Assembly (NCBI GenBank): GCA_963719075.1 | Contig: CAVRAN010000005.1 | Location: forward strand, 55,310-119,309 | Origin: an uncultured Verrucomicrobiae bacterium | Lineage (GTDB): Bacteria; Verrucomicrobiota; Verrucomicrobiia; Limisphaerales; UBA11358 | DNA length: 64,000 bases | Direction: 5' to 3' | Shown here: one piece after another, positions 16 through 60,650 of the stretch | Layout of the letters: every line of letters starts with the position of its first letter | Numbering within the stretch: position 1 is the first letter of the stretch | The notes under the pieces: model-generated | The model's database searches: none | What the model was told of the DNA's origin: nothing | Seen by the model: the letters and a program-made list of their open reading frames with translations, nothing else | Program-made: the position numbers and the translations under genes

Positions 16-417
16 TCAGGGTGAGGTGTGATACTGCTCGTCACTGACCTTTTCCATCCAGTCAACTGCTTTGCCATCGAGTTGTTCCTGAATGGCGATG
101 TGTGTCATCGCCGTGGTCGGTGACGCGCCGTGCCAGTGCTTTTCGCCCGGCGCGAACTGGATCACGTCACCCGGCCGGATTTGCTCAACTGGCCCGCCCA
201 AGCTTTGCGCAAGTCCGCAGCCGGAAATCACGATGAGCGTCTGCCCCAGCGGATGCGTGTGCCAGGCCGTCCGCGCGCCCGGCTCGAACGTCACACTCGC
301 GCCGACCGCGCGCGCCGGAGCGATGGGCTGAAACAGCGGGTCAATGCGGACCGTGCCGGTGAACCAATCCGCCGGCCCTTTGCCGGAAGGCCGCGAGCCG
401 CTTCGTTTGATTTCCAT
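16..417 (-). CDS. cupin domain protein
   Basis: 133-aa ORF with cupin metal-site motifs ([14 protein letters not shown] ... [10 protein letters not shown]). The N-terminal [10 protein letters not shown] is typical of small cupins. Confidence 0.8.
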
Positions 418-429
418 AGTTTGAATTTT

Positions 430-612
430 TTATTTGATGGCCGAAACTTTGTTGGTTGTGATGGCGACGGAGTTTGTGATGGTGGCGGCCGGGCTGGTGG
501 TTTTAGCGGCCTGATAAACCCCGTAATGCACCGGTTTTGGCCCGCTGCCACAAGCCCATAGCGTTGACAAAATCGTATTGAACAGCAAGAAGGCAATCAG
601 CGGATGTTTCAT
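430..612 (-). CDS. small putative lipoprotein (hypothetical)
   Basis: 60-aa ORF directly upstream of and co-oriented with the cupin gene. The hydrophobic N-terminus ends in a lipobox-like LWAC. No family recognised. Confidence 0.35.
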   Translation of the reverse strand: MKHPLIAFLLFNTILSTLWACGSGPKPVHYGVYQAAKTTSPAATITNSVAITTNKVSAIK

Positions 613-5853: not shown

Positions 5854-6000
5854 GCACAAATTCCCTTTTCCTTCGCGAAAATGGTTTGGTTCGTCGCGGA
5901 ACTTGTTTGGTTCATTACCAAACTTGTTTGGTCGGTGAGGGAACTTCCAAGTTTCATGACCAAACTTCCCTTCTTCGTCAAGAAGGTGTTTGGCGTGACG
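5854..6000. repeat. 21-bp-period degenerate tandem array (7 units, core AACTTGTTTGGT)
   Basis: GTTTGGT or its degenerate equivalent recurs at 5883, 5904, 5925, (5946), (5967) and 5988, exactly 21 bp apart. It lies between convergent genes. Confidence 0.75.
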
Positions 6001-6396: not shown

Positions 6397-6669
6397 TCAA
6401 GACAGTTGATTAATGGTGGAAGGACTGTTCGTGTATGTCGGCGGCTGGTTGGGAATGGGTTGTCCGGGTTGTGGTGATGGGCCAGGTTGCGGTGATGGGG
6501 CAACTTGCGATGGCACGGGTTGTGAGGGGGCAGGTTGCGGTGACGGGCCGGGTTGTGGCGATGGAACAGGCGGTGACGGATGCATGGAAGTCTGTCCCGA
6601 AACATTCAAAACGACGAGCATACTCAGAATCGTCAGGGATAGCAGAGTCCTCATATTTTTACCTTTCAT
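6397..6669 (-). CDS. secreted proline-rich protein (hypothetical)
   Basis: 90-aa ORF with a signal peptide (RTLLSLTILSMLVVLNVSG) followed by PSPQPGPSPQP-type low-complexity repeats. Confidence 0.5.
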   Translation of the reverse strand: MKGKNMRTLLSLTILSMLVVLNVSGQTSMHPSPPVPSPQPGPSPQPAPSQPVPSQVAPSPQPGPSPQPGQPIPNQPPTYTNSPSTINQLS

Positions 6670-6722: not shown

Positions 6723-7211
6723 CTATTGATTGGTGCTCGCCGGGACATTCGTATTGATGTCCGGCATATTGGTGGCTGCAGGCATATTCGTATCCACATC
6801 CGACATGCCGTTGGTCGCAGGCATATTCGTATCCACATCCGACATGCCGTTGGTCGCAGGCATATTCGTATCCACATCCGACATGCCGTTGGTCGCAGGC
6901 ATATTCGTATCCACATCCGAGATGCCGTTGGTTGCAGGCATATTCGTATTCATGTCCGACATGCCGTTGGTTGCAGGCATATTCGTATTCATGTCCGACA
7001 TGCCGTTGGTTGCAGGCATATTCGTATTCATGTCCGACATGCCGTTGGTTGCAGGCATATTCGTATTCATATCCGACATGCTGTTGGTATCGCCCATACT
7101 TGAATTGGTGGATGGCATATCGGTTGAACTGCTCGGGCTATTTTGATTACAGCCCACCAACGCCAATGCGGCTACAACTAGAATTGCTAACAATGGAATG
7201 ATTGATTTCAT
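6723..7211 (-). CDS. Met/Asn/Asp-rich tandem-repeat lipoprotein
   Basis: 162-aa ORF with a lipobox (LALVGC). It has ~9 in-frame 13-aa repeats of the form MPATNGMSD(M/V)(N/D)TN. Confidence 0.7.
   Translation of the reverse strand: MKSIIPLLAILVVAALALVGCNQNSPSSSTDMPSTNSSMGDTNSMSDMNTNMPATNGMSDMNTNMPATNGMSDMNTNMPATNGMSDMNTNMPATNGISDVDTNMPATNGMSDVDTNMPATNGMSDVDTNMPATNGMSDVDTNMPAATNMPDINTNVPASTNQ
6742..7092. repeat. 39-bp tandem repeat (about 9 units), coding
   Basis: The unit GGCATATTCGTATCCACATCCGACATGCCGTTGGTCGCA recurs from 6781 in two near-identical subfamilies (…ATCCACATCC… and …ATTCATGTCC…). It is in frame within CDS 6723..7211. Confidence 0.9.
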
Positions 7212-28067: not shown

Positions 28068-29303
28068 TCATTGTCCTGTCAAGCCGAACCGCTTGGTGAT
28101 GGGCCAATAGACGAAGAAGGATTTGCCGATGACTGCTGTCTCTGGAATTGGTCCCCAAAAACGTGAGTCAAGGCTGTTACAAGTATTATCACCCATTGGC
28201 AAACAGGAGTTTTCCGGCACATCAACGACCGTTTGTTCGTCAGGAAAAAGAAAGACGCCACCGGGAGGCTCATTCAATAATCCTGTTATGTCATATTCTT
28301 GGGCGACGGTGCCGTTAACATGGCCTGACCATTGGCTGTCACGCGGCGGTTGTTTTGGGTCAAAGCCGTAGACATTTTCAAAATGCGAGGTCGAGGCGTC
28401 AATACGCTGTCCGTTGATGATCAAATGTCGGTCGTCGCCAATCTGAACTTTTTCGCCTGGCAATCCAACAAGGCGCTTGATGTAAAATTCATCACTAGGA
28501 ATACCATAGATTTCGCGTTTGTATTCAGGGATTCCTTTGGTTTCGAACACTATGATTTCTCCGCGTTGCGGTTTGCGAAAATTGTAAGTCAACCGGTCCA
28601 CGAACAAATGATCGCCGGCGCGCATTTGCAATTTAATCACATCGTCGCCTTGGTGATAAAAATGCTCCTGCTTCAAACGGGCGCGATAAGCCAGCGGGTC
28701 TTCTCCGGGCGGCGCTTCGCCAAAATCCGGCGGAAACCAAATCGTGTGCGAGACGCCCCCGATCGAAATGGTCTGCTTGATGTTGAAAATCAAAAATCGC
28801 CGCATCGGACTCAGCGCGTCAATTTTGCCGTCTGCGGGCGCGACGACGTGAACGTAGGAAATTCCTTCAAACCATTGCTTGATTCGTTCCAGTCCGGTGG
28901 GAATTTGAAAATTCTTGTCGCCGAGCAGATTTTTTGAAGTGACGCCGTAAAGCGTCGGCTGCATCGAGCCGGTCGGAATTTTGAACGGTTGCACAAAAAA
29001 TGTGCGGATGCCCATCGCCACCGCCAGCGCGACCAAAAGCACTTCGACATTCTCGCGCCACACGGCATTTGGATACGGCTTAAGCCATTTCTCGGCGGCA
29101 AACTGAAGCTCTTCCGCTTTGATCCGAATTTTCCCGTTGTTCGCTCCTTCGGCGATAGTCGCATTCAATTCGTAAATTTTTATTTGCACCGCCGCGATGG
29201 CCTGTGGCGAAAGAATGTCGCGCTGTGCGTTCAACAAGCGCAACACGTGCTTGCGCATCGCACACGCTTCGCGAACGGTTTTAGAAAAGAGCCAGCGGAT
29301 CAT
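28068..29303 (-). CDS. lepB: signal peptidase I
   Basis: IPTGSMQPTL (catalytic Ser), YIKRLVGLPGE (Lys box) and GDNTCNSLDSRFWG are present. It has a long N-terminal cytoplasmic extension. Confidence 0.9.
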   Translation of the reverse strand: MIRWLFSKTVREACAMRKHVLRLLNAQRDILSPQAIAAVQIKIYELNATIAEGANNGKIRIKAEELQFAAEKWLKPYPNAVWRENVEVLLVALAVAMGIRTFFVQPFKIPTGSMQPTLYGVTSKNLLGDKNFQIPTGLERIKQWFEGISYVHVVAPADGKIDALSPMRRFLIFNIKQTISIGGVSHTIWFPPDFGEAPPGEDPLAYRARLKQEHFYHQGDDVIKLQMRAGDHLFVDRLTYNFRKPQRGEIIVFETKGIPEYKREIYGIPSDEFYIKRLVGLPGEKVQIGDDRHLIINGQRIDASTSHFENVYGFDPKQPPRDSQWSGHVNGTVAQEYDITGLLNEPPGGVFLFPDEQTVVDVPENSCLPMGDNTCNSLDSRFWGPIPETAVIGKSFFVYWPITKRFGLTGQ

Positions 29304-29356: not shown

Positions 29357-29580
29357 CAAAATACTCGTAACGCGGGCGAATGAAAGACAATTTCCCCTGC
29401 CCTGCCCCTGAAAATTTTTCTATAAAATATTGACAACCCGCTCTGCTTTTGGTGAAGTAGGCGGCGCAACAGATGAAGGGATTTAGGACATCTGATGCCG
29501 GGTCAGGGCATTTATGGAAGGGCGCAGATTCGCTCACGCAATCCTTTTCTTCCGACACTCCCGCAAGTTTGCCGCTATAC

Positions 29581-29805
29581 CGCAACCTCCGGCTGTCATC
29601 CCCTACCCTCCGTTGTTGCGCGGCGGACTTCCGGCGTCTTTCGCCGGAGTTCCGGCGTGCCGCCATTACCTTCCGTCCCGCCGTCCCGAAGCTCCGGCGT
29701 CGCTCCACTAACCTCCGGCGTTCGACGCCGGAGGTTAGTCGTGGCACGGCGGAGCTTCCGCCATCAGCGCCGGAACATCCAATTTTGCCGCCGAAACTTA
29801 ACCAA
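29581..29805. repeat. 21-bp-period degenerate tandem array (about 11 units, core CGCCGGAnnTCCGGCG)
   Basis: TCCGG or TCCGT recurs at 29588, 29609, 29630, 29651, 29672, 29693, 29714, 29757 and 29778, all separated by multiples of 21 bp. It lies upstream of CDS 29871. Confidence 0.8.
29707..29739. other. perfect 14-bp-stem inverted repeat inside array
   Basis: ACTAACCTCCGGCG-TTCGA-CGCCGGAGGTTAGT. It is not followed by a T-run. Confidence 0.7.
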
Positions 29806-29870
29806 CACGCGGCAAATCAAGCAGTTATGAAATAAAATGTAAAAATAAACACTGAAAATGGAGAAAAATT

Positions 29871-30530
29871 ATGGGAAACGATTATATACCGCCAGCCGAT
29901 GCCGAATTTCACAACTGGCTCGGCAACTTCCACGATTACGTCAATACAAATGCCGCCACTCTGGGCCTGACGCCCGGCGACGTGACGCCTTTGACAAATT
30001 CCACGACCAATTGGAACACCGCCTATCCCGCGCATCAAAGCGCGCAAAACGCCGCCGTTGGCGCAAAGGCGACGAAGGACAATGCGCGCTCCGATGCCGA
30101 AAGCGTCGTGCGCCCGCTCGCGCAGCGATTGCAGGTCAGCCCCGGCGTGACCGATGCGCAGCGCAGCGCGATGCAAATCTCCGTCCGCGCCACCACGCGA
30201 ACGGCGGCGAGCATCCCCACCACCGCTCCGGCGGCCACTGTTGATACCAGCCAGCGCCTGCGCCATATCATCAACTACAAGGATTCAGCCGGCTCCAGAG
30301 CCAAGCCTGCGGGCGTGGCCTATTGCGAAATCTGGAACAAAGTGGGCGCGCCCGCGCCGACCGACGTGAGCCAGTTGACCTATCTGGGCAACGCCAGCAA
30401 AACGCCGCAACTGGAAGAATACACCGGCGCACAGGCGGGGCAGATGGTTTGGTATTGGCTGCGCTGGGTCAACACCCGAGGCGAAAAAGGCCCGTGGAGC
30501 GACCCGGTAAGCGCAACCATTCCGGGCTAG
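29871..30530 (+). CDS. hypothetical protein (family shared with 59469..60140), C-terminal FN3-like domain
   Basis: 219 aa with GGAG 8 nt upstream of the ATG. N-terminal FHNWLGNF ... LGLTPGDV and C-terminal WYWLRWVNTRGEKGPWSDPVSATIPG parallel the 59469 protein. Confidence 0.6.
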   Translation: MGNDYIPPADAEFHNWLGNFHDYVNTNAATLGLTPGDVTPLTNSTTNWNTAYPAHQSAQNAAVGAKATKDNARSDAESVVRPLAQRLQVSPGVTDAQRSAMQISVRATTRTAASIPTTAPAATVDTSQRLRHIINYKDSAGSRAKPAGVAYCEIWNKVGAPAPTDVSQLTYLGNASKTPQLEEYTGAQAGQMVWYWLRWVNTRGEKGPWSDPVSATIPG

Positions 30531-30607: not shown

Positions 30608-31526
30608 ATGAAAACGCGCATTAAAAATCTGTTGCCCTTGCTGTTGCTGTTGGGATTACCCGCCGTGGTGCAAGCCCAAGACGCTTACAGCACCAATGCC
30701 GACGGCAGCATCTACACTTACAGCACCAACGCCGACGGCAGTGCCAACATCGTCGCTTACGCCGGGCCTCCCTGGGTGGTGACCATTCCAACCAATATCA
30801 ACGGCCTGACGGTCACCACCATCGGGGAGTATGCGTTCGATGGTCACGACCTGACCAGCGTGACGATTCCCGACAGCGTCACCAGCATCGGAGAATCTGC
30901 GTTCGGGGCTTGTTTCAGCCTGACGAGCGTGACGATTGGCAATGGCGTCACCAGCATCGGGGAAGCTGCGTTTGGAGAATGACAGCAGCCTGACGAACGC
31001 GACCATTCCCAATGGCGTCACCAGCATCGGGGGTGGTGCGTTCGTGTATTGTTCGAGCCTGACGAGTGTGACCATCGGCAACGGCGTCACCAGTATCGGT
31101 GAGGTTGCGTTCGGGGCTTGTTCCAGACTGACGAGCGTCTATTTCACGGGCAACGCTCCGTCACCAACCAATGATTCAACTGTTTTCGGCGGCAACCCCA
31201 ACGCCGACCCCGCGACTGTCTATTACTTGCCGGGCACCACGGGCTGGGGCGCGATGTTTGACGGTCTGCCGACCGCGCCATGGTTCCTTCCGAACCCGCT
31301 AATCCTTAACCACAGCGCCAGCTTCGGCGTGCAACCCGGCGGGTTTGGTTTCACCATCTCCTGGGCAACGAACGCTTCCGTCGTGGTGGAAGCCGCCACG
31401 AATCTGGCCAATCCGGTCTGGATTCCGGTGAGCACCAACACCACCCTGACCGGCGGCACGAACTATTTCAGCGATCCGCAATGGACGAATTATCCCGGCC
31501 GTTTCTACCGATTAAGCATGCCGTAA
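30608..31526 (+). pseudogene. BspA-type leucine-rich-repeat secreted protein, frameshifted; FYRL-type C-terminal domain
   Basis: Two ORFs (30608..30982 and 30936..31526) carry the same (I/V)[19 protein letters not shown] repeat. The frame breaks at GGAGAATGACAGC (~30976-30988), where one extra base creates a TGA. Confidence 0.7.
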
Positions 31527-33995: not shown

Positions 33996-35273
33996 TTACA
34001 GCAATGTTTCCGCTGATTTCTTTTCAAGAAGCGATTCAAGATACCAACGACGAACTTCTGAAGTTAATTGCTGATAGACTTGCGGGTCACGACCGACACT
34101 GTGCGGGTCATCATTATTTGCATCACTTGCGTTCATCAAACTTCGGATGAGTTTTGGACCATATTTATTAAAAAATACGAATGGGTCTGTAAGCCATTCA
34201 AATTTTCCTTCTTTCTCAACTAAAAGAACACGGAAGCCAGAAATGAGAGGAATACTTAAACCTTTATCAATTGGAACATCACCTTCGACCGGCTCGGATG
34301 CCTTAAGAAAATAATAAGTGGCTTTAGCTCTTGAATTACGCTTGTCCTTTGCATCTTGAGCTTCTTTTGTTAATCCAAACTTTCCACCCTTTCCCGCTTC
34401 ATCAGGAGCATTGTATTTTGATTTGAAGTTCAAGCGAACATGGTCATGTAGACGCATGATGTCCTTGCATATTGGAGCTAATTTCCTAAATCCATGCCGG
34501 TCGTCATCAGCGACAAAGGCTTGAAGCATCTTGCCTGCATTCTTATATGCGTCTTGAGCAGGTTTTTCATCTGCAAAAAGCCATGGATTGACAGCGCTGA
34601 TAACTTGAACCACGTCAAGAATGCCCACTGGCTCTGGATCGTTTTCACTAACCCTAATGCTTTTTGCGAAATCCTTGCCTAAAGCCTCAAGCAGCCAATC
34701 AAACTTATCGCGATAACTTGCCAGCGTCCAAGCCTTGAGTGCCACGCTAAAATTTCTCGCTTCAGCAATGTCGGCAAGATCGGCTTCAATATTCTCAAGA
34801 ATTTCGAGGTGAACAAATTGGTCTGGAAAAACACGCAATTCTTTATCAATCGGGTTGGTTTTTCCGCTTTTACCTGCTGCAATAATTTTTCCAACTCGAT
34901 GGCGCTCTTCACTAACTGCGCTTTTAATACATTCGTAAGTATGTGCGCCATCAAGAATGCCAAATTGTTCTTCATCACGAGGAATGACCAGTGTCAGTTC
35001 ATTTTTTTTGTTGTCAAACTCACAATGTTTTGCCGAAATTGTGATTCCACGATTCTTGAGATGAAACTTGCCATCGTTTGATTGTAAAGAAGCGACAATC
35101 CTTTTCGGCACTGCGCCACCGGTGATTTTTGGAGTTCGAGGATCGGGGTCTAACGGAATGTCGAATGGGAGGTCATTCACATTTACAAAAGCGTGAACAA
35201 TTCGAATCTTTTCGTTATTGGGATCTTTCAGGGAACGAGTTCGTTCCGCCAAGGCAGGTATTCTGTATTTCAT
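33996..35273 (-). CDS. AIPR/DGQHR-like (ParB-fold) hypothetical protein, possible abortive-infection factor
   Basis: AT-rich ORF. FGILDGAHTYECI resembles DGQHR/DGQQR-type motifs of ParB-fold nucleases. The start is uncertain: ATG 35273, TTG 35405 or ATG 35492, with the ORF open to 35540. Confidence 0.5.
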   Translation of the reverse strand: MKYRIPALAERTRSLKDPNNEKIRIVHAFVNVNDLPFDIPLDPDPRTPKITGGAVPKRIVASLQSNDGKFHLKNRGITISAKHCEFDNKKNELTLVIPRDEEQFGILDGAHTYECIKSAVSEERHRVGKIIAAGKSGKTNPIDKELRVFPDQFVHLEILENIEADLADIAEARNFSVALKAWTLASYRDKFDWLLEALGKDFAKSIRVSENDPEPVGILDVVQVISAVNPWLFADEKPAQDAYKNAGKMLQAFVADDDRHGFRKLAPICKDIMRLHDHVRLNFKSKYNAPDEAGKGGKFGLTKEAQDAKDKRNSRAKATYYFLKASEPVEGDVPIDKGLSIPLISGFRVLLVEKEGKFEWLTDPFVFFNKYGPKLIRSLMNASDANNDDPHSVGRDPQVYQQLTSEVRRWYLESLLEKKSAETLL

Positions 35274-35504
35274 ATGTTTGTTGCGAGAGGCATTAAAGCC
35301 TGCTGCATTTATTTCTGCATTATCAGCTAGAGCACTCCATGTGCTGCCAGTGACAAGTTGAAGAATAGGGGTTTTTGATTTCGGCGCAACTTTTTTCTTA
35401 AACAAAAAAGCAAAGCCGCTTTCGCAGCCCGGCTTGTGAACCTGCCTCGTTTCTATTTCTTCACTGCGTCCGGCCGCTCCTTCGAGGAACATCCCCAAAA
35501 TGCA

Positions 35505-35525
35505 GGTAGGGTTACACCCCATAGC
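35505..35525 (+). promoter_or_regulatory. stress-promoter motif copy (GGTAGGGTTACACCCCATAGC)
   Basis: TAGCGT lies 19 nt downstream (35545..35550). It is upstream of the BON gene. Confidence 0.65.
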
Positions 35526-35597
35526 GGAGAACGGACGCATCGCTTAGCGTGTTTCAAGTATTAAAAACAAACAACTCAACAATCGAATTAAAACATA

Positions 35598-42870: not shown

Positions 42871-42985
42871 CTGAATCCACCCCGGCAAAGTCCCGTCGTC
42901 CTCCCGCGAAATCCCGCAGCCTCCCCGCAAAGTCCCGGCTCGCTCCCATGAAATCCCGGATGTTTCCCGCGAAATCTTGCGCGTG
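42870..42985. repeat. 21-bp-period degenerate tandem array (5-6 units, core CCCGCGAAATCCCG)
   Basis: TCCCG recurs at 42891, 42912, 42933 and 42954, and as TCTTG at 42975, exactly 21 bp apart. Confidence 0.75.
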
Positions 42986-43092: not shown

Positions 43093-43827
43093 ATGAAATC
43101 TGAAGCTCGAGCATTCACCATCCGGGCAATTCCAATTGCCGTCGAGTGGCAGCGCGCCGTTCGAACCGGCAAAATTCCACTGACGGCCAAAGTCATCTGT
43201 ACCGTTTTCCTCGCCGTCCTCGTTCCGGTCTATTTGCACACCTACGGGCCGACCAATTTTTTATGGTTTTGCGATGCCGCGCTCATTCTCACGGTGGCGG
43301 GGATATGGCTGGAAAGTTCCCTGCTCATCAGCATGTGCGCCGTGGGCATACTGCTTCCGCAATGCCTCTGGCTCGCGGATTTTGGCAGCAATCTTCTGGG
43401 TTTTCCCTTTCTGAACCTGACGGGTTATATGTTCGATCCGCATCTTCCCCTTTTCACGCGCGGGCTTTCACTGTTTCATGGCTGGCTGCCTTTCCTGCTC
43501 GTCTGGCTGCTATTCCGTCTTGACTACGATAAACGCGCATTGACTGCGTGGACGGTCGTGGCGGCAGGGTTGGTACTGGTCAGTTACGTTTTTACTCTGC
43601 CCGCCGGAGCGCATCCGGCCAACCCCAACGTCCCCGTCAATATTAATTATGTTTACGGATTTAACGACCAGCAGCCGCAACACTGGGTCAACCAAAACCT
43701 TTATGTTGCCCTGTTGTTTGGCATGTTGTGGCTTGTCGCATTTCTCCCCACCCACTTGGTTTTGCGGAAAATTTTTGCCGTGAGAAAGCCGGAGTCGGCA
43801 CTGAAACTTCCCATTCGATTTATGTAA
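43093..43827 (+). CDS. multi-pass membrane protein (hypothetical)
   Basis: 244 aa with ~6 hydrophobic helices. No family recognised. Confidence 0.6.
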   Translation: MKSEARAFTIRAIPIAVEWQRAVRTGKIPLTAKVICTVFLAVLVPVYLHTYGPTNFLWFCDAALILTVAGIWLESSLLISMCAVGILLPQCLWLADFGSNLLGFPFLNLTGYMFDPHLPLFTRGLSLFHGWLPFLLVWLLFRLDYDKRALTAWTVVAAGLVLVSYVFTLPAGAHPANPNVPVNINYVYGFNDQQPQHWVNQNLYVALLFGMLWLVAFLPTHLVLRKIFAVRKPESALKLPIRFM

Positions 43828-54111: not shown

Positions 54112-54903
54112 TCACGCTGAACTTTCCGCCGCGCGTGAACTCGCCGCCTCATTGCAAAGCGCTTTGGCAAATGGATTTAACTGCGGTGGAGCTTCAACGC
54201 GCTCTTTGCCGCTCAACAATCCTTCAACCGTGAGAATTTGGATTTTGGGATAATCCTTGTCATGCCAGAGTTTTGATTCGTAACGTCCCGCGTCCGCCGC
54301 TTCTTCACGCATCGGCTTCGTGGGTTTTTCCAGCGTGATTAAAATTCCGGCGGCAAATTTCTGATTGTTCACGTCGCCGAGCAAGGTGGAAATGTCATTC
54401 CGCTGCACGCCACCGCCTTTGACTTGCACGAGGATTTTCTCGCGCTTCTCTTTGCTCTCGTAAAAATACAGCATCCCGTCCACGCCGCGATCGGCGCCTT
54501 TGCCGTCGGTGCGCGGCATTGCATCGATCTGTGAAAGCGCCCAATGCTCAAAATCATTCCTGTGCGTTTCTCTATCCAATTTGGCCAATCGTTTTGCGCC
54601 CTCGAAATCTGTCGGCTGGCCTTTTTCGTCAATTTGAATGTCCTTGCCAAAAGCATCTTTAAGTCGGCGCTTGATGAGATTGATGGCGATATAAGTGACA
54701 TCAATGCCAATCCATTGACGGCCTAGTTTTTGCGCTGCATGAACAGTCGTGCCGCAACCGCAAAACGGATCAAGCACGATGTCGCCCTTGTTGGAGCTGG
54801 CCGAAAGAATGCGTTCTAACAAAGCTTGCGGCTTTTGCGTTGCATATCGGCGCGGGTGTGGTGCAGAGCGGGGTCGATGCAGGCGCGCATTGCAGCGAGC
54901 TTG
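54112..54903 (-). pseudogene. 5'-truncated DNA methyltransferase fused to Mrr-like endonuclease domain
   Basis: [14 protein letters not shown]...[11 protein letters not shown] is the C-terminal motif I of N4/N6 methyltransferases. The N-terminal DPPY half is absent. The C-terminal part (GADRGVDG...ILVQVKGG) is Mrr-cat-like. The frame is open only to 54903 and overlaps the 3' end of the next gene. Confidence 0.6.
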
Positions 54904-59468: not shown

Positions 59469-60140
59469 TCAGCCCATCACGCTGATGCTGGCGATGTCAC
59501 TCCACTGGCCGACTTGTTCATCGGCGACGCGGTAGATGGCCTTGTATCTCCAGACGGCGCTCGCGCCGGGCGCGGGCAGCGGCGCGGTGTCCAGATAATC
59601 CGGCACGGTGGCGAAAGCCAGAAACGCGAACGTGCCCGTGCCGCGATCCACCAGCAGTTCCACCCCGTCCGTCCCCTGCTTGGTCCAGCCGACGTTCGGA
59701 TGCCCGGCTTGCAGGGTGATTTCCAGCACCGGCTTGAGGCTGTTGTAATCAATCACCTGTTCCGCCCCGATGATGCCCAAATCCTGACCGATGGCCTCGG
59801 TGTAGGCGGGATGTTTCTTGATGCGCGCGGCCAGCGCCGAGGCGCGGGTAAAAATACCCGGCGGCACGGCGGGCGGCGGCGGGCCAAGCGCGGGCGTGGT
59901 GGGCATATCGCCCAGAGCGGTACCCTTGCTCAGGGCGGCTTTGTAGGCTGTCCAATCGCGGGTGGTTTTGGTGTGTTGATTGTGCGCATCGCACACGTAG
60001 CCGAAATAGAGGTCGTCTGCCTCCGTTTGCGCGATTTCGCCCGCCGTGACGCCGACGGTCGGGCCGTCGGTCGGCAATTTGGCGGAGAAATTTGTGAGCC
60101 AAGTGCGTCTGCCCGGCTCATCTTTGGGCATGAATGATAT
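59469..60140 (-). CDS. hypothetical protein (family shared with 29871..30530), C-terminal FN3-like domain
   Basis: Start MAKISFMPKDEPGRRTWLTNFSAKL. The C-terminus is WRYKAIYRVADEQVGQWSDIASISVMG. The in-frame upstream extension to 60566 is the repeat array and is judged non-coding. Confidence 0.6.
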   Translation of the reverse strand: MSFMPKDEPGRRTWLTNFSAKLPTDGPTVGVTAGEIAQTEADDLYFGYVCDAHNQHTKTTRDWTAYKAALSKGTALGDMPTTPALGPPPPAVPPGIFTRASALAARIKKHPAYTEAIGQDLGIIGAEQVIDYNSLKPVLEITLQAGHPNVGWTKQGTDGVELLVDRGTGTFAFLAFATVPDYLDTAPLPAPGASAVWRYKAIYRVADEQVGQWSDIASISVMG

Positions 60141-60183
60141 TTTTGCCATAGGTTTTATGTGTTTTTGCTGGGTTTTTACTGTT

Positions 60184-60478
60184 TTGGTGGTTTCCCGGAC
60201 GGTTCGGAGCTTTCCCGGAACGTCGAGGAAGTTTCCCCGACCATCGGGGAAAGGTGCCCGAAGGCCGGGGAAAGCTCCCCGACCTTTGCGGAAAGGTGAA
60301 AAATGGTTGAGGAAAGGTGCCGGACGGTTCCGCACTGCTCCCGAAGCGTTGGGGAAAGGTGACGGATGGTTCGGGACTGTTCCCGGAAGTTTGCGGAGTA
60401 CTGCCGGAAGCCTGAGGAAAGGTGAAAAAAGATTGGGAAAAACTGCCGCGCCAGCGGGGAGTTTGCCTGAGAGAAAAT
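60184..60478. repeat. 21-bp-period degenerate tandem array (about 14 units, cores TTTCCCGGA / GGAAAGGTG)
   Basis: The exact 9-mer GGAAAGGTG occurs at 60248, 60290, 60311, 60353 and 60416, all separated by multiples of 21. CCCGGA-type cores recur every 20-22 bp from 60191 to 60466. Confidence 0.85.
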
Positions 60479-60621
60479 GCCGTCGTCCGCAGTCATCCCT
60501 CAAACGACCGCGACCCGAACCCAAATTGTTTGCAATCCACGCCATATCCGTCCCCTGACCCGGCAAACTACGGAATTAAATTCCCGAACTGTCAAAACCC
60601 GGTGAAACCGAACTGTGAATT

Positions 60622-60650
60622 TTTTTACCGAAAAACCAAAAATCTGTCAA
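60622..60650 (-). promoter_or_regulatory. candidate sigma70-type promoter
   Basis: The minus strand reads TTGACA (60650..60645), a 17-nt spacer, then TAAAAA (60627..60622). It would give a ~470-nt leader containing the whole 21-bp array. Confidence 0.4.

Follow-up and report, generated by a model that had tools for sequence, protein, structure and literature searches.

What kind of element is a run of short, imperfect tandem repeats in front of a gene, and does it control that gene? The question is raised by array 1, a tandem series of about 11 degenerate units, each exactly 21 bp long, in the register CCGnAnnnTCCGGCGnnnnnn, at 29581..29811 (+) of a 64,000-nucleotide stretch from an uncultured Verrucomicrobiae bacterium (GenBank assembly GCA_963719075.1, contig CAVRAN010000005.1, positions 55,310 to 119,309), which is called the window here and to which all coordinates refer unless a locus is named. 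The array is chromosomal, lies between lepB and lepA, and occupies non-coding DNA 5′ of the open reading frame (ORF) 29871..30530. A preliminary description of this DNA, made from the sequence alone, had reported the array together with a divergent lepB neighbour, and the gene at 28068..29303 (-) is indeed a signal peptidase, whose orthologue carries PF10502, divergent from 29871..30530 (+). The evidence set out below leads us to regard array 1, tentatively, as what may be a helically phased series of protein-docking sites that acts at the level of DNA and controls the downstream gene.

Printed in a 21-base register, positions 29581-29811 fall into 11 units, which bears out the extent and period first given for the array. 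Its finer features fared unevenly. The motif TCCGG(C/T) had been listed at nine sites; it is present as exact TCCGGC at 29588, 29630, 29651, 29693 and 29714, but the other four are degenerate (TCCGTT at 29609, TCCGTC at 29672, TCCGCC at 29757 and TCCAAT at 29778). The palindromic unit CGCCGGA-GT-TCCGGCG exists, but a repeat search finds it complete in only two or three units of array 1. The perfect inverted repeat ACTAACCTCCGGCG-TTCGA-CGCCGGAGGTTAGT, with 14-bp arms around a 5-nt centre, stands at 29707..29739 within the array just as reported, and is lineage-specific. The periodicity itself exceeds chance: self-match at a lag of 21 rises to 0.52 in 210-bp windows, where the mean over all 64 kb is 0.274 (standard deviation 0.044). 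When 84-bp windows are used, five regions of the 64 kb reach at least 0.52 at lag 21, while at lags of 15, 24, 27 and 30 no such window reaches 0.55, lag 24 has no region at 0.52, and lag 18 has a single region, which is a coding proline-rich repeat. Tandem Repeats Finder at a score of 30 does not report array 1, because its units are only about 50% alike, and a lag self-match scan is required to see it.

A second array of the same kind, array 2, lies at 60186..60438 (-) and has about 11-12 21-bp units, which read CCnCnAnnnTCCGGGnACCTTT on the minus strand; it precedes a paralogous gene at 59469..60149 (-). Both arrays have about 11 units and a like orientation relative to their genes. The product of 29871..30530 is a 219-residue protein that is helical in its N-terminal half and ends in an FN3-like beta sandwich, and that of 59469..60149, at 226 residues, is its homologue from end to end (hhalign aligns 198 columns at a probability of 96%, E 3e-9), so that the distant relationship previously suspected between them is secure; BLASTP between the two covers 34 N-terminal residues only. 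In an AlphaFold2 model of the 219-residue protein (pLDDT 88), residues 10-26 and 35-89 form the two helices of an N-terminal hairpin, which the beta sandwich follows, and its Foldseek matches are FN3 domains only, from cell-surface receptors and phage tail proteins. Searches of Pfam, NCBIfam and PADLOC gave no match for either protein. A profile built from the two families finds a superfamily of 7,654 clusters at 50% identity (E up to 1e-3), or 4,243 at E up to 1e-10. A phage origin was considered and appears unlikely, as 2.9 million viral contigs hold six family-1 matches and no family-2 match, and matches to PHROG and in Foldseek are limited to the FN3 domain.

The association between array and gene can be followed well beyond this genome. 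Two samples were used, namely 80 genome loci of 6.6 kb each with relatives of 29871..30530 (family 1), 78 of them usable, and 65 metagenome loci with relatives of 59469..60149 (family 2) and enough upstream sequence. Arrays of at least six units lie within 1.4 kb upstream of the gene at 50 of the 78 family-1 loci, 47 of the 50 ending no more than 500 bp from the start codon, and at most family-1 loci the strongest periodicity of the whole locus is one of 21, 42 or 63 bp within 500 bp upstream of the gene. The same periods are found within 500 bp upstream at 61 of the 65 family-2 loci, where they are nearly always the top periodicity of the locus. The suggestion that orthologues might be preceded by 21-bp arrays is therefore borne out in both families, and the proposal that recurrence of one class of element beside one gene family argues for function is supported by the homology of the two genes and by the arrays upstream of their relatives. 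A uniform boundary rule applied to both families yields 110 arrays of at least six units, the set to which the array statistics below refer. Their median length is 11.8 units, the 10th and 90th percentiles being 7.9 and 16.8 and the maximum 21.5, and the median distance from array end to start codon is 91 nt.

Among family-1 loci, arrays of at least six units occur in seven phyla: Bacteroidota (22 of 24 loci), Acidobacteriota (10 of 13), Verrucomicrobiota (3 of 4), Planctomycetota, Cyanobacteriota (2 of 4), Ignavibacteriota (one of two, the second, L023, having an array interrupted by masked N) and Armatimonadota (the one locus sampled). Within the Planctomycetota they are present at 5 of 19 loci from Phycisphaerae and at 5 of 8 from other members. 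Since similar arrays precede relatives of the gene in at least seven phyla, array 1 looks like a real element and not an accident of slippage. Across these lineages the period is always exactly 21 bp and the unit sequence varies freely: a Paludibacter has TATTCTGAGAGTTAGAGAATA, repeated 17 times, a genome of the Prolixibacteraceae has CCTTGGGCAGATTGATTCTCT and a planctomycete has AAGTCCGGCGATCATCCCCGG. Neither the palindromic unit nor the hairpin, both named in the preliminary description, is what is conserved, and dyad symmetry is slight in many arrays elsewhere. Around the family-1 loci no gene next to the module recurs, from which it follows that array and gene form a stand-alone module.

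Close relatives indicate how the arrays evolve. An orthologous counterpart of array 1 is seen in L165, L167 and L161. In the first two, where the orthologous intergenic region is 98% identical, the number of units equals that of array 1, yet 24 of the 38 substitutions relative to the window fall within 132 columns of the promoter-proximal half of the array, and the 180 bp 5′ of it are almost invariant. There the 14-bp hairpin is no longer perfect: one arm has a single change and the other has three, with no compensation, so that its perfection in the window is an accident of this lineage, in a repeat that is palindromic only in part. Between array 2 and its counterpart in a 90%-identical relative (L081), one exact 21-nt insertion and one 62-nt deletion fall inside the array. 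The arrays gain and lose whole units and their unit sequence turns over rapidly; the period and an approximate copy number are kept.

Such behaviour raises the prospect of a non-functional satellite, a neutral product of slippage or unequal recombination that merely persists in intergenic regions. The fast turnover of units, their near-uniform divergence across columns, the different copy numbers of close relatives and the presence in the window of an orphan array between convergent genes are all what a satellite would show. It would not account for one exact period that returns, at similar copy numbers and equally placed before the start codon, at more than 100 loci in seven phyla and two anciently diverged families, nor for the lack of any comparable lag in the window, nor for a phasing of A and T at 10.5 bp that the arrays have in common, and we find this explanation hardly credible.

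That phasing is shared by arrays whose unit sequences differ. At lag 21 the mean self-match stands at 0.58, other lags giving 0.22-0.34, and the averaged profile dips at lags 5-7 and 14-16 and levels out at 8-13. The second harmonic, at 10.5 bp, accounts for 23-25% of the power in the spectra of A, T and purine content, compared with 10% in column-shuffled controls; A+T content as such gives no 10.5-bp peak in the Fourier analysis. T-rich blocks trail A-rich blocks by 4.6 nt (resultant length 0.67), which means that A gives way to T twice within a unit, once for every turn of the helix, typically in forms such as AAC..GTT, AACTT, GGAGTTCC or TTCC..GGAA. For an exact tandem repeat to keep step with a 10.5-bp helix, its unit has to be 21 bp, and this would be the simplest explanation for a period that is conserved in sequences that are not. 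A weak consensus is also shared: expectation-maximization (EM) alignment over rotations of the units recovers 4.46 bits against 2.1-2.2 for permuted units, and 3.83 bits against a null of 2.3 for family 1 alone across phyla.

Phasing of this kind would also be expected of purely architectural DNA, a sequence-tolerant phased spacer or bend of about 250 bp that joins the conserved block upstream of the array (the head block) to a promoter, or recruits a nucleoid-associated protein. The small bends of any 21-bp tandem would then add coherently, and only insertions or deletions of whole units would be tolerated, keeping the flanks in helical phase. Much of what has been described fits: the period is conserved and the sequence is not, A and T are phased at 10.5 bp, units diverge almost evenly across columns, indels come in whole units, the head block is better conserved than the array, and arrays of one genome would need no common motif. 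In a wedge model of curvature, the ratio of end-to-end to contour length is 0.904 against 0.942 for fully shuffled sequence, and arrays are the more curved in 74% of cases, but the predicted curvature is modest and no greater than that of column-permuted tandems (0.905; 52%), so that the model reveals no optimisation beyond periodicity. Moreover, a head block is seen only in Verrucomicrobia lineages, the Paludibacter-group array starts right after the upstream stop codon, and the distance from array to promoter-like motif ranges from about 40 to nearly 1000 bp. An architectural role on its own therefore seems to us unlikely, if well worth keeping in mind.

Whether the arrays are instead coding can be answered from their frames. 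Stops occur in all three sense frames of 41 of the 110 arrays, and open frames total 96 in the sense direction and 74 in the antisense direction; the frame that would continue into the gene is free of stops in 27 of 110, and array 1 is out of frame with 29871. These stop and frame counts reject a coding reading, be it a heptad repeat, an upstream ORF or an N-terminal extension of the gene product. Annotation is easily misled here. The 365-codon ORF at 59469..60566 (-), which runs from 60566 through array 2 into the real gene, is an artefact that arises because the repeat of array 2 is stop-free, and six database entries (P0121, P0227, P0267, P0324, P0326 and P0365) carry 60-125 spurious N-terminal residues from reading through an array.

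If the arrays are not translated they may still be transcribed, and a 5′ leader is a further explanation to be considered: a promoter in the head block would place the array in a 5′ untranslated region of about 400 nt as a repeated RNA element, which would either offer an RNA-binding protein a platform or form small stem-loops in series and so set the stability or translation of the mRNA. Promoter-like elements lend this idea support. Head block 1 (29395..29580, +) holds TTGACA (29430-29435), a 17-nt spacer and TGAAGT (29453-29458), then the 12-mer GCCGGGTCAGGG (29497-29508), with a CAGATG/CATCTG stem inside the inverted repeat 29466-29475 / 29489-29498. Head block 2 (60439..60625, -), about 88% conserved against L081, has TTGACA (60595-60590), a 17-nt spacer and CGTAGT, and the identical 12-mer at 60564-60553. 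The approximately 180 bp of head block 1 can be recognised 5′ of a 72%-identical homologue in L161/L162 (nhmmer E 4e-8), where the context differs, with aconitase upstream in place of lepB; between array 1 and L161 the element TTGACA-N17-nnAAGT is kept and its 17-nt spacer varies in sequence. The arrays of 28 peat-metagenome family-2 loci are preceded by a different conserved head block; in family-2 head blocks from peat metagenomes, a related sequence, TTGCCGGGCATG, can be seen. Between array 1 and the start codon there is an A-rich leader (29812..29870, +), and the comparable leaders of related loci are A/C- or A/T-rich; such G-poor, A/C-rich sequence resembles unstructured translation-initiation regions. 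The -7 boxes of Bacteroidetes, where perfect, likewise lie upstream of the arrays, and relaxed ones are not enriched in the gap between array and ATG (9 observed, 11.5 expected).

Evidence for a structured RNA is harder to find. Measured against mononucleotide shuffles, most arrays do fold better than expected, but about equally well on both strands (median z -3.7 sense, -3.1 antisense). Between dyad arms there are 161 compensatory double changes, which is no excess over the 166.8 +/- 10.2 of permutations, and G-T and A-C mismatches are equally frequent (233 and 217, p = 0.48); an RNA stem made from either strand should skew that ratio, so the equality gives no sign that base pairing is selected. 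Rfam yields nothing at gathering scores for the whole window, and with E up to 1 only chance miRNA-like matches on the two arrays, far below gathering. By these pairing and Rfam results the arrays do not qualify as structured RNA repeats of the kind seen in hairpin arrays, CsrB-like sponges or REP/BIME elements. For the head blocks the RNAalifold energy is -2.6 kcal/mol, and few of the pairs have the support of two or three sequence groups. To this may be added the uncompensated loss of the window hairpin in a 98%-identical relative, and promoter-like motifs downstream of the array at eight family-1 loci. These last are sigma-70-like (TTGnnn-N17/18-TAnnnT, at -102 to -146 from the ATG), come from Acidobacteriota, Planctomycetota and Cyanobacteriota, and in three cases share TTGCCT..TAGGATGCC; a relaxed TTG..TAnnnT scan shows the cluster at -102 to -146 and yet no overall enrichment, and a strict sigma-70 scan finds almost nothing. 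On balance we think it improbable that the arrays act chiefly as leader RNA. The array may lie 5′ of the start site in some lineages and be transcribed in others, and such mixed placement fits a DNA-level element better than an RNA element that depends on position, although it does not prove one.

Other familiar readings were also rejected. The units are contiguous, without spacers, and the whole period is 21 bp, which sets aside a CRISPR array. GGA is frequent in both window arrays and, on reading, absent from many arrays elsewhere, which tells against a CsrA sponge. Readings of the leader or head block as sigma-54 or extracytoplasmic function (ECF) sigma promoters fail, by inspection, on the GG doublet or on the spacings.

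Should a protein bind the DNA, the product of the downstream gene is one candidate. In ParR with parC, in iteron-Rep and in omega-heptad systems, the adjacent gene product binds its own repeats, and the FN3 protein could likewise form a filament on its array, either autoregulating its gene or marking the locus. Array and gene do travel as a stand-alone module with no other conserved partner, paralogous arrays of one genome can differ, as expected if each protein reads its own array, and the N terminus of the family consists of a short conserved segment, a helix, G-(L/V)-T and a helix, a layout that we take to recall, loosely, ribbon-helix-helix proteins. Yet no DNA-binding domain is detected in the window proteins and they match no DNA-binding family, and the proteins are near-neutral to acidic, with a median net charge over the N-terminal 100 residues of -2 in family 1 and +1 in family 2 (-3 and -1 for the window copies). 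The N-terminal motif is strongly conserved across phyla, unlike the unit sequences it would have to read; most Phycisphaerae members lack arrays; and two arrays in the window adjoin no family gene. Autogenous binding thus appears very unlikely.

The two arrays just mentioned deserve a fuller account. One, at 5868..5994 (-), has six units of 21 bp of the CCAAACAAGTTTGG, ACAAGTTCCGCG and CAAGTTTGG types and lies between two convergent genes; the other, at 42881..42985 (+), has five (TCCCGCGAAATCCCGGnnnnn / TCCCGCGAAATCCCGG) and lies about 108 nt upstream of an unrelated membrane-protein ORF (43093..43827). Their motifs resemble those of arrays 1 and 2 by eye, with profile correlations that are only moderate. 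Because neither adjoins a member of the family, the 21-bp element is not strictly tied to the FN3 genes in this genome. A weak three-unit periodicity of 21 bp (GCCGCnAnnAnCACnAnC) can also be seen at 404-517 (-), in the C/A-rich leader directly 5′ of a cupin-like ORF (417..16).

We come back, then, to the view of array 1 as a docking array at the DNA level. The module is made up, in order, of a head block of about 180 bp, 10-20 units of 21 bp, a short A/C-rich leader and a gene of about 220 codons for a helical and FN3 protein. Since 21 bp corresponds to two turns of B-DNA, each unit shows the same helix face, on which many copies of a DNA-binding protein might align cooperatively and switch transcription of the gene downstream. 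Concrete candidates would be regulators of the LytTR or AraC/XylS type, which act on direct repeats spaced by 21 bp. That a protein binds, which one it would be and how transcription would respond are things we infer from several patterns taken together: the association across phyla, an exact period in differing sequence, the 10.5-bp phasing, the non-coding nature of the arrays and the absence of an RNA signal, along with the weak shared motif, the promoter-like motif downstream of the array at eight loci, nearby regulator genes and the similarity of some arrays within one genome. Such similarity is seen for L047/L069 (0.79) and L008/L024 (0.76), and arrays 1 and 2 stand at the 93rd percentile of cross-family pairs. 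The regulator genes encode AraC-type HTH_18 proteins in L047, L060, L067, L069, L091 and L163 and LytTR response regulators in L038, L043 and L076, all nine 0.3-2.2 kb upstream and on the same strand. In L163, about two units of 21 bp follow a small AraC-like gene (by eye, in alignment), a stretch that looks like an ordinary operator and may perhaps represent the unexpanded state. The XylS operator has a gap of 6 bp between its 15-bp repeats, and the LytTR consensus is [TA][AC][CA]GTTN[AG][TG]; compared with that consensus, an AGTT core occurs in array 1 and in several Bacteroidales arrays and is not general.

A number of observations weigh against a regulator of this kind. A candidate lies nearby at only 9 of approximately 165 loci and nowhere in the 64-kb window, and the known LytTR and AraC/XylS operators contain two, rarely three, repeats of a set consensus, whereas the arrays have 10-20 that vary between lineages. 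Divergence among units is nearly uniform over the 21 columns (variance ratio 1.09 against a uniform-mutation null), with no position-specific conservation within arrays above that null, which is not expected of sequence-specific sites under purifying selection. Paralogous arrays of one genome can be unrelated in sequence, as in L016/L026 and L031/L060 (about the 20th percentile), and the orphan array at 5868..5994 has no family gene nearby and nothing obvious to regulate. Finally, in the Verrucomicrobia lineage of the window the sole promoter-like element conserved between contexts lies upstream of the array, and in Bacteroidota perfect TAnnTTTG boxes are found 15-181 nt upstream of arrays at seven loci and never between array and ATG.

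There is a substantial, if less than even, chance that the arrays form a new class of bacterial cis element in which the 21-bp period itself, and not the sequence of the unit, is the signal. Such a tandem array would renew itself and support a one-faced nucleoprotein filament or a DNA loop 5′ of members of the superfamily; selection on phase and copy number would maintain it in at least seven phyla, and sequence would drift by concerted evolution.

Several further features of the loci may be recorded alongside. At the Paludibacter-like loci L025, L036, L040, L057, L062 and L077 the array begins directly after the gene for a small secreted protein of 121 aa (DUF3244 / T9SS-sorted), which shares its strand and lies 0.35-0.55 kb upstream of the array. 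Six family-2 loci (L102, L111, L120, L121, L124 and L135) have, in the approximately 230 nt between array and full gene, a fragment of the N-terminal motif (W-L-T-H-F-A-K-R-L-P...), followed by a 10-codon mini-ORF (MKTTNATSTP) whose TGA falls six nucleotides before the main ATG. Phycisphaerales loci L063 (766..2549, -), L058, L064, L068, L070 and L072 each have two family-1 genes, 2-3 kb apart on the same strand and without 21-bp arrays; in L063 they stand on either side of two divergent genes, for an AAA-type ATPase and a 227-residue protein, and these two look like a defence-system insertion.

The window itself holds other repeats and genes of note. A BspA-type leucine-rich-repeat gene 3′ of 29871..30530 is split into overlapping ORFs at 30608..30982 and 30936..31526 (+) and is a single ORF of 587 aa in its L166 orthologue; the split is a frameshift or a collapsed 69-bp repeat (Tandem Repeats Finder, 30850-31138). 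Eight near-perfect 39-bp repeats (96% matches) at 6773-7088 encode the 13-residue repeat NMPATNGMSDMNT in a predicted lipoprotein (6723..7211, -), and the adjoining ORF 6397..6669 has an 18-bp proline-rich repeat. Two genes are defence-like: 33996..35540 (-) codes for a protein of the AIPR (abortive-infection phage-resistance) kind, and 54112..54822 (-) for part of a DNA methylase joined to a restriction endonuclease domain of the Mrr type.

Should the arrays prove regulatory, they would constitute a widespread and easily recognised promoter architecture, with 10-20 phased sites in front of a superfamily that has thousands of members and no assigned function, carried by poorly studied phyla of soil and freshwater (Verrucomicrobiota, Acidobacteriota, Planctomycetota, Bacteroidota and others). 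They also offer an experimental handle, as bait for a binding factor and in reporters where unit number and phase can be varied, and with it a natural test of transcription control by helical phasing and site multiplicity in place of site sequence. On the practical side, gene callers often extend starts through an array, giving false N-terminal extensions of 60-125 residues.

How, then, do the arrays compare with what is known? The literature searched on 21-bp repeats and on phased intergenic repeats yielded no description of such arrays, and the nearest systems are three. LytTR regulators bind two repeats whose 9 bp + 12 bp or 10 bp + 11 bp add up to 21 bp (PMC2766830), and XylS binds two 15-bp direct repeats through two helix-turn-helix motifs (PMC5481539). 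Like the arrays, the operators of LytTR-type (AgrA/ComE/SilA) and AraC/XylS-type regulators consist of imperfect direct repeats with a centre spacing of 21 bp, on one helix face and upstream of a promoter. Beyond their copy number and consensus, they differ in that their repeats sit just upstream of the -35 element, whereas the distance from array to promoter varies here, and in that most loci here have no such regulator nearby.

Iterons and type II centromeres, such as ParR-parC and the 20-bp repeats of pSK41, have four to ten or more helix-phased tandem units on which a cooperative nucleoprotein filament forms. The protein that binds them, a Rep or a ribbon-helix-helix adaptor, is encoded next to them, and they are found on plasmids beside an NTPase or an origin. 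The likeness lies in tandem, short, helix-phased units directly upstream of a gene; here, in contrast, the setting is chromosomal, the adjacent product is an acidic helical and FN3 protein with no DNA-binding signature, and there is neither NTPase nor Rep. Curved or phased upstream DNA, including the static bends that replace IHF at enhancer-dependent promoters, extends in the known cases over three to six turns and is not made of exact tandem repeats. It resembles the arrays in having A/T blocks phased at 10.5 bp over many turns and in tolerating sequence change, but the arrays run for 20-40 turns from a strict 21-bp unit, and their predicted curvature is not above that of permuted-unit tandems. 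Set beside the direct-repeat operators and the iteron or centromere arrays, array 1 fails defining features of each, among them copy number, cognate protein and context. It looks like an apparently undescribed control element.

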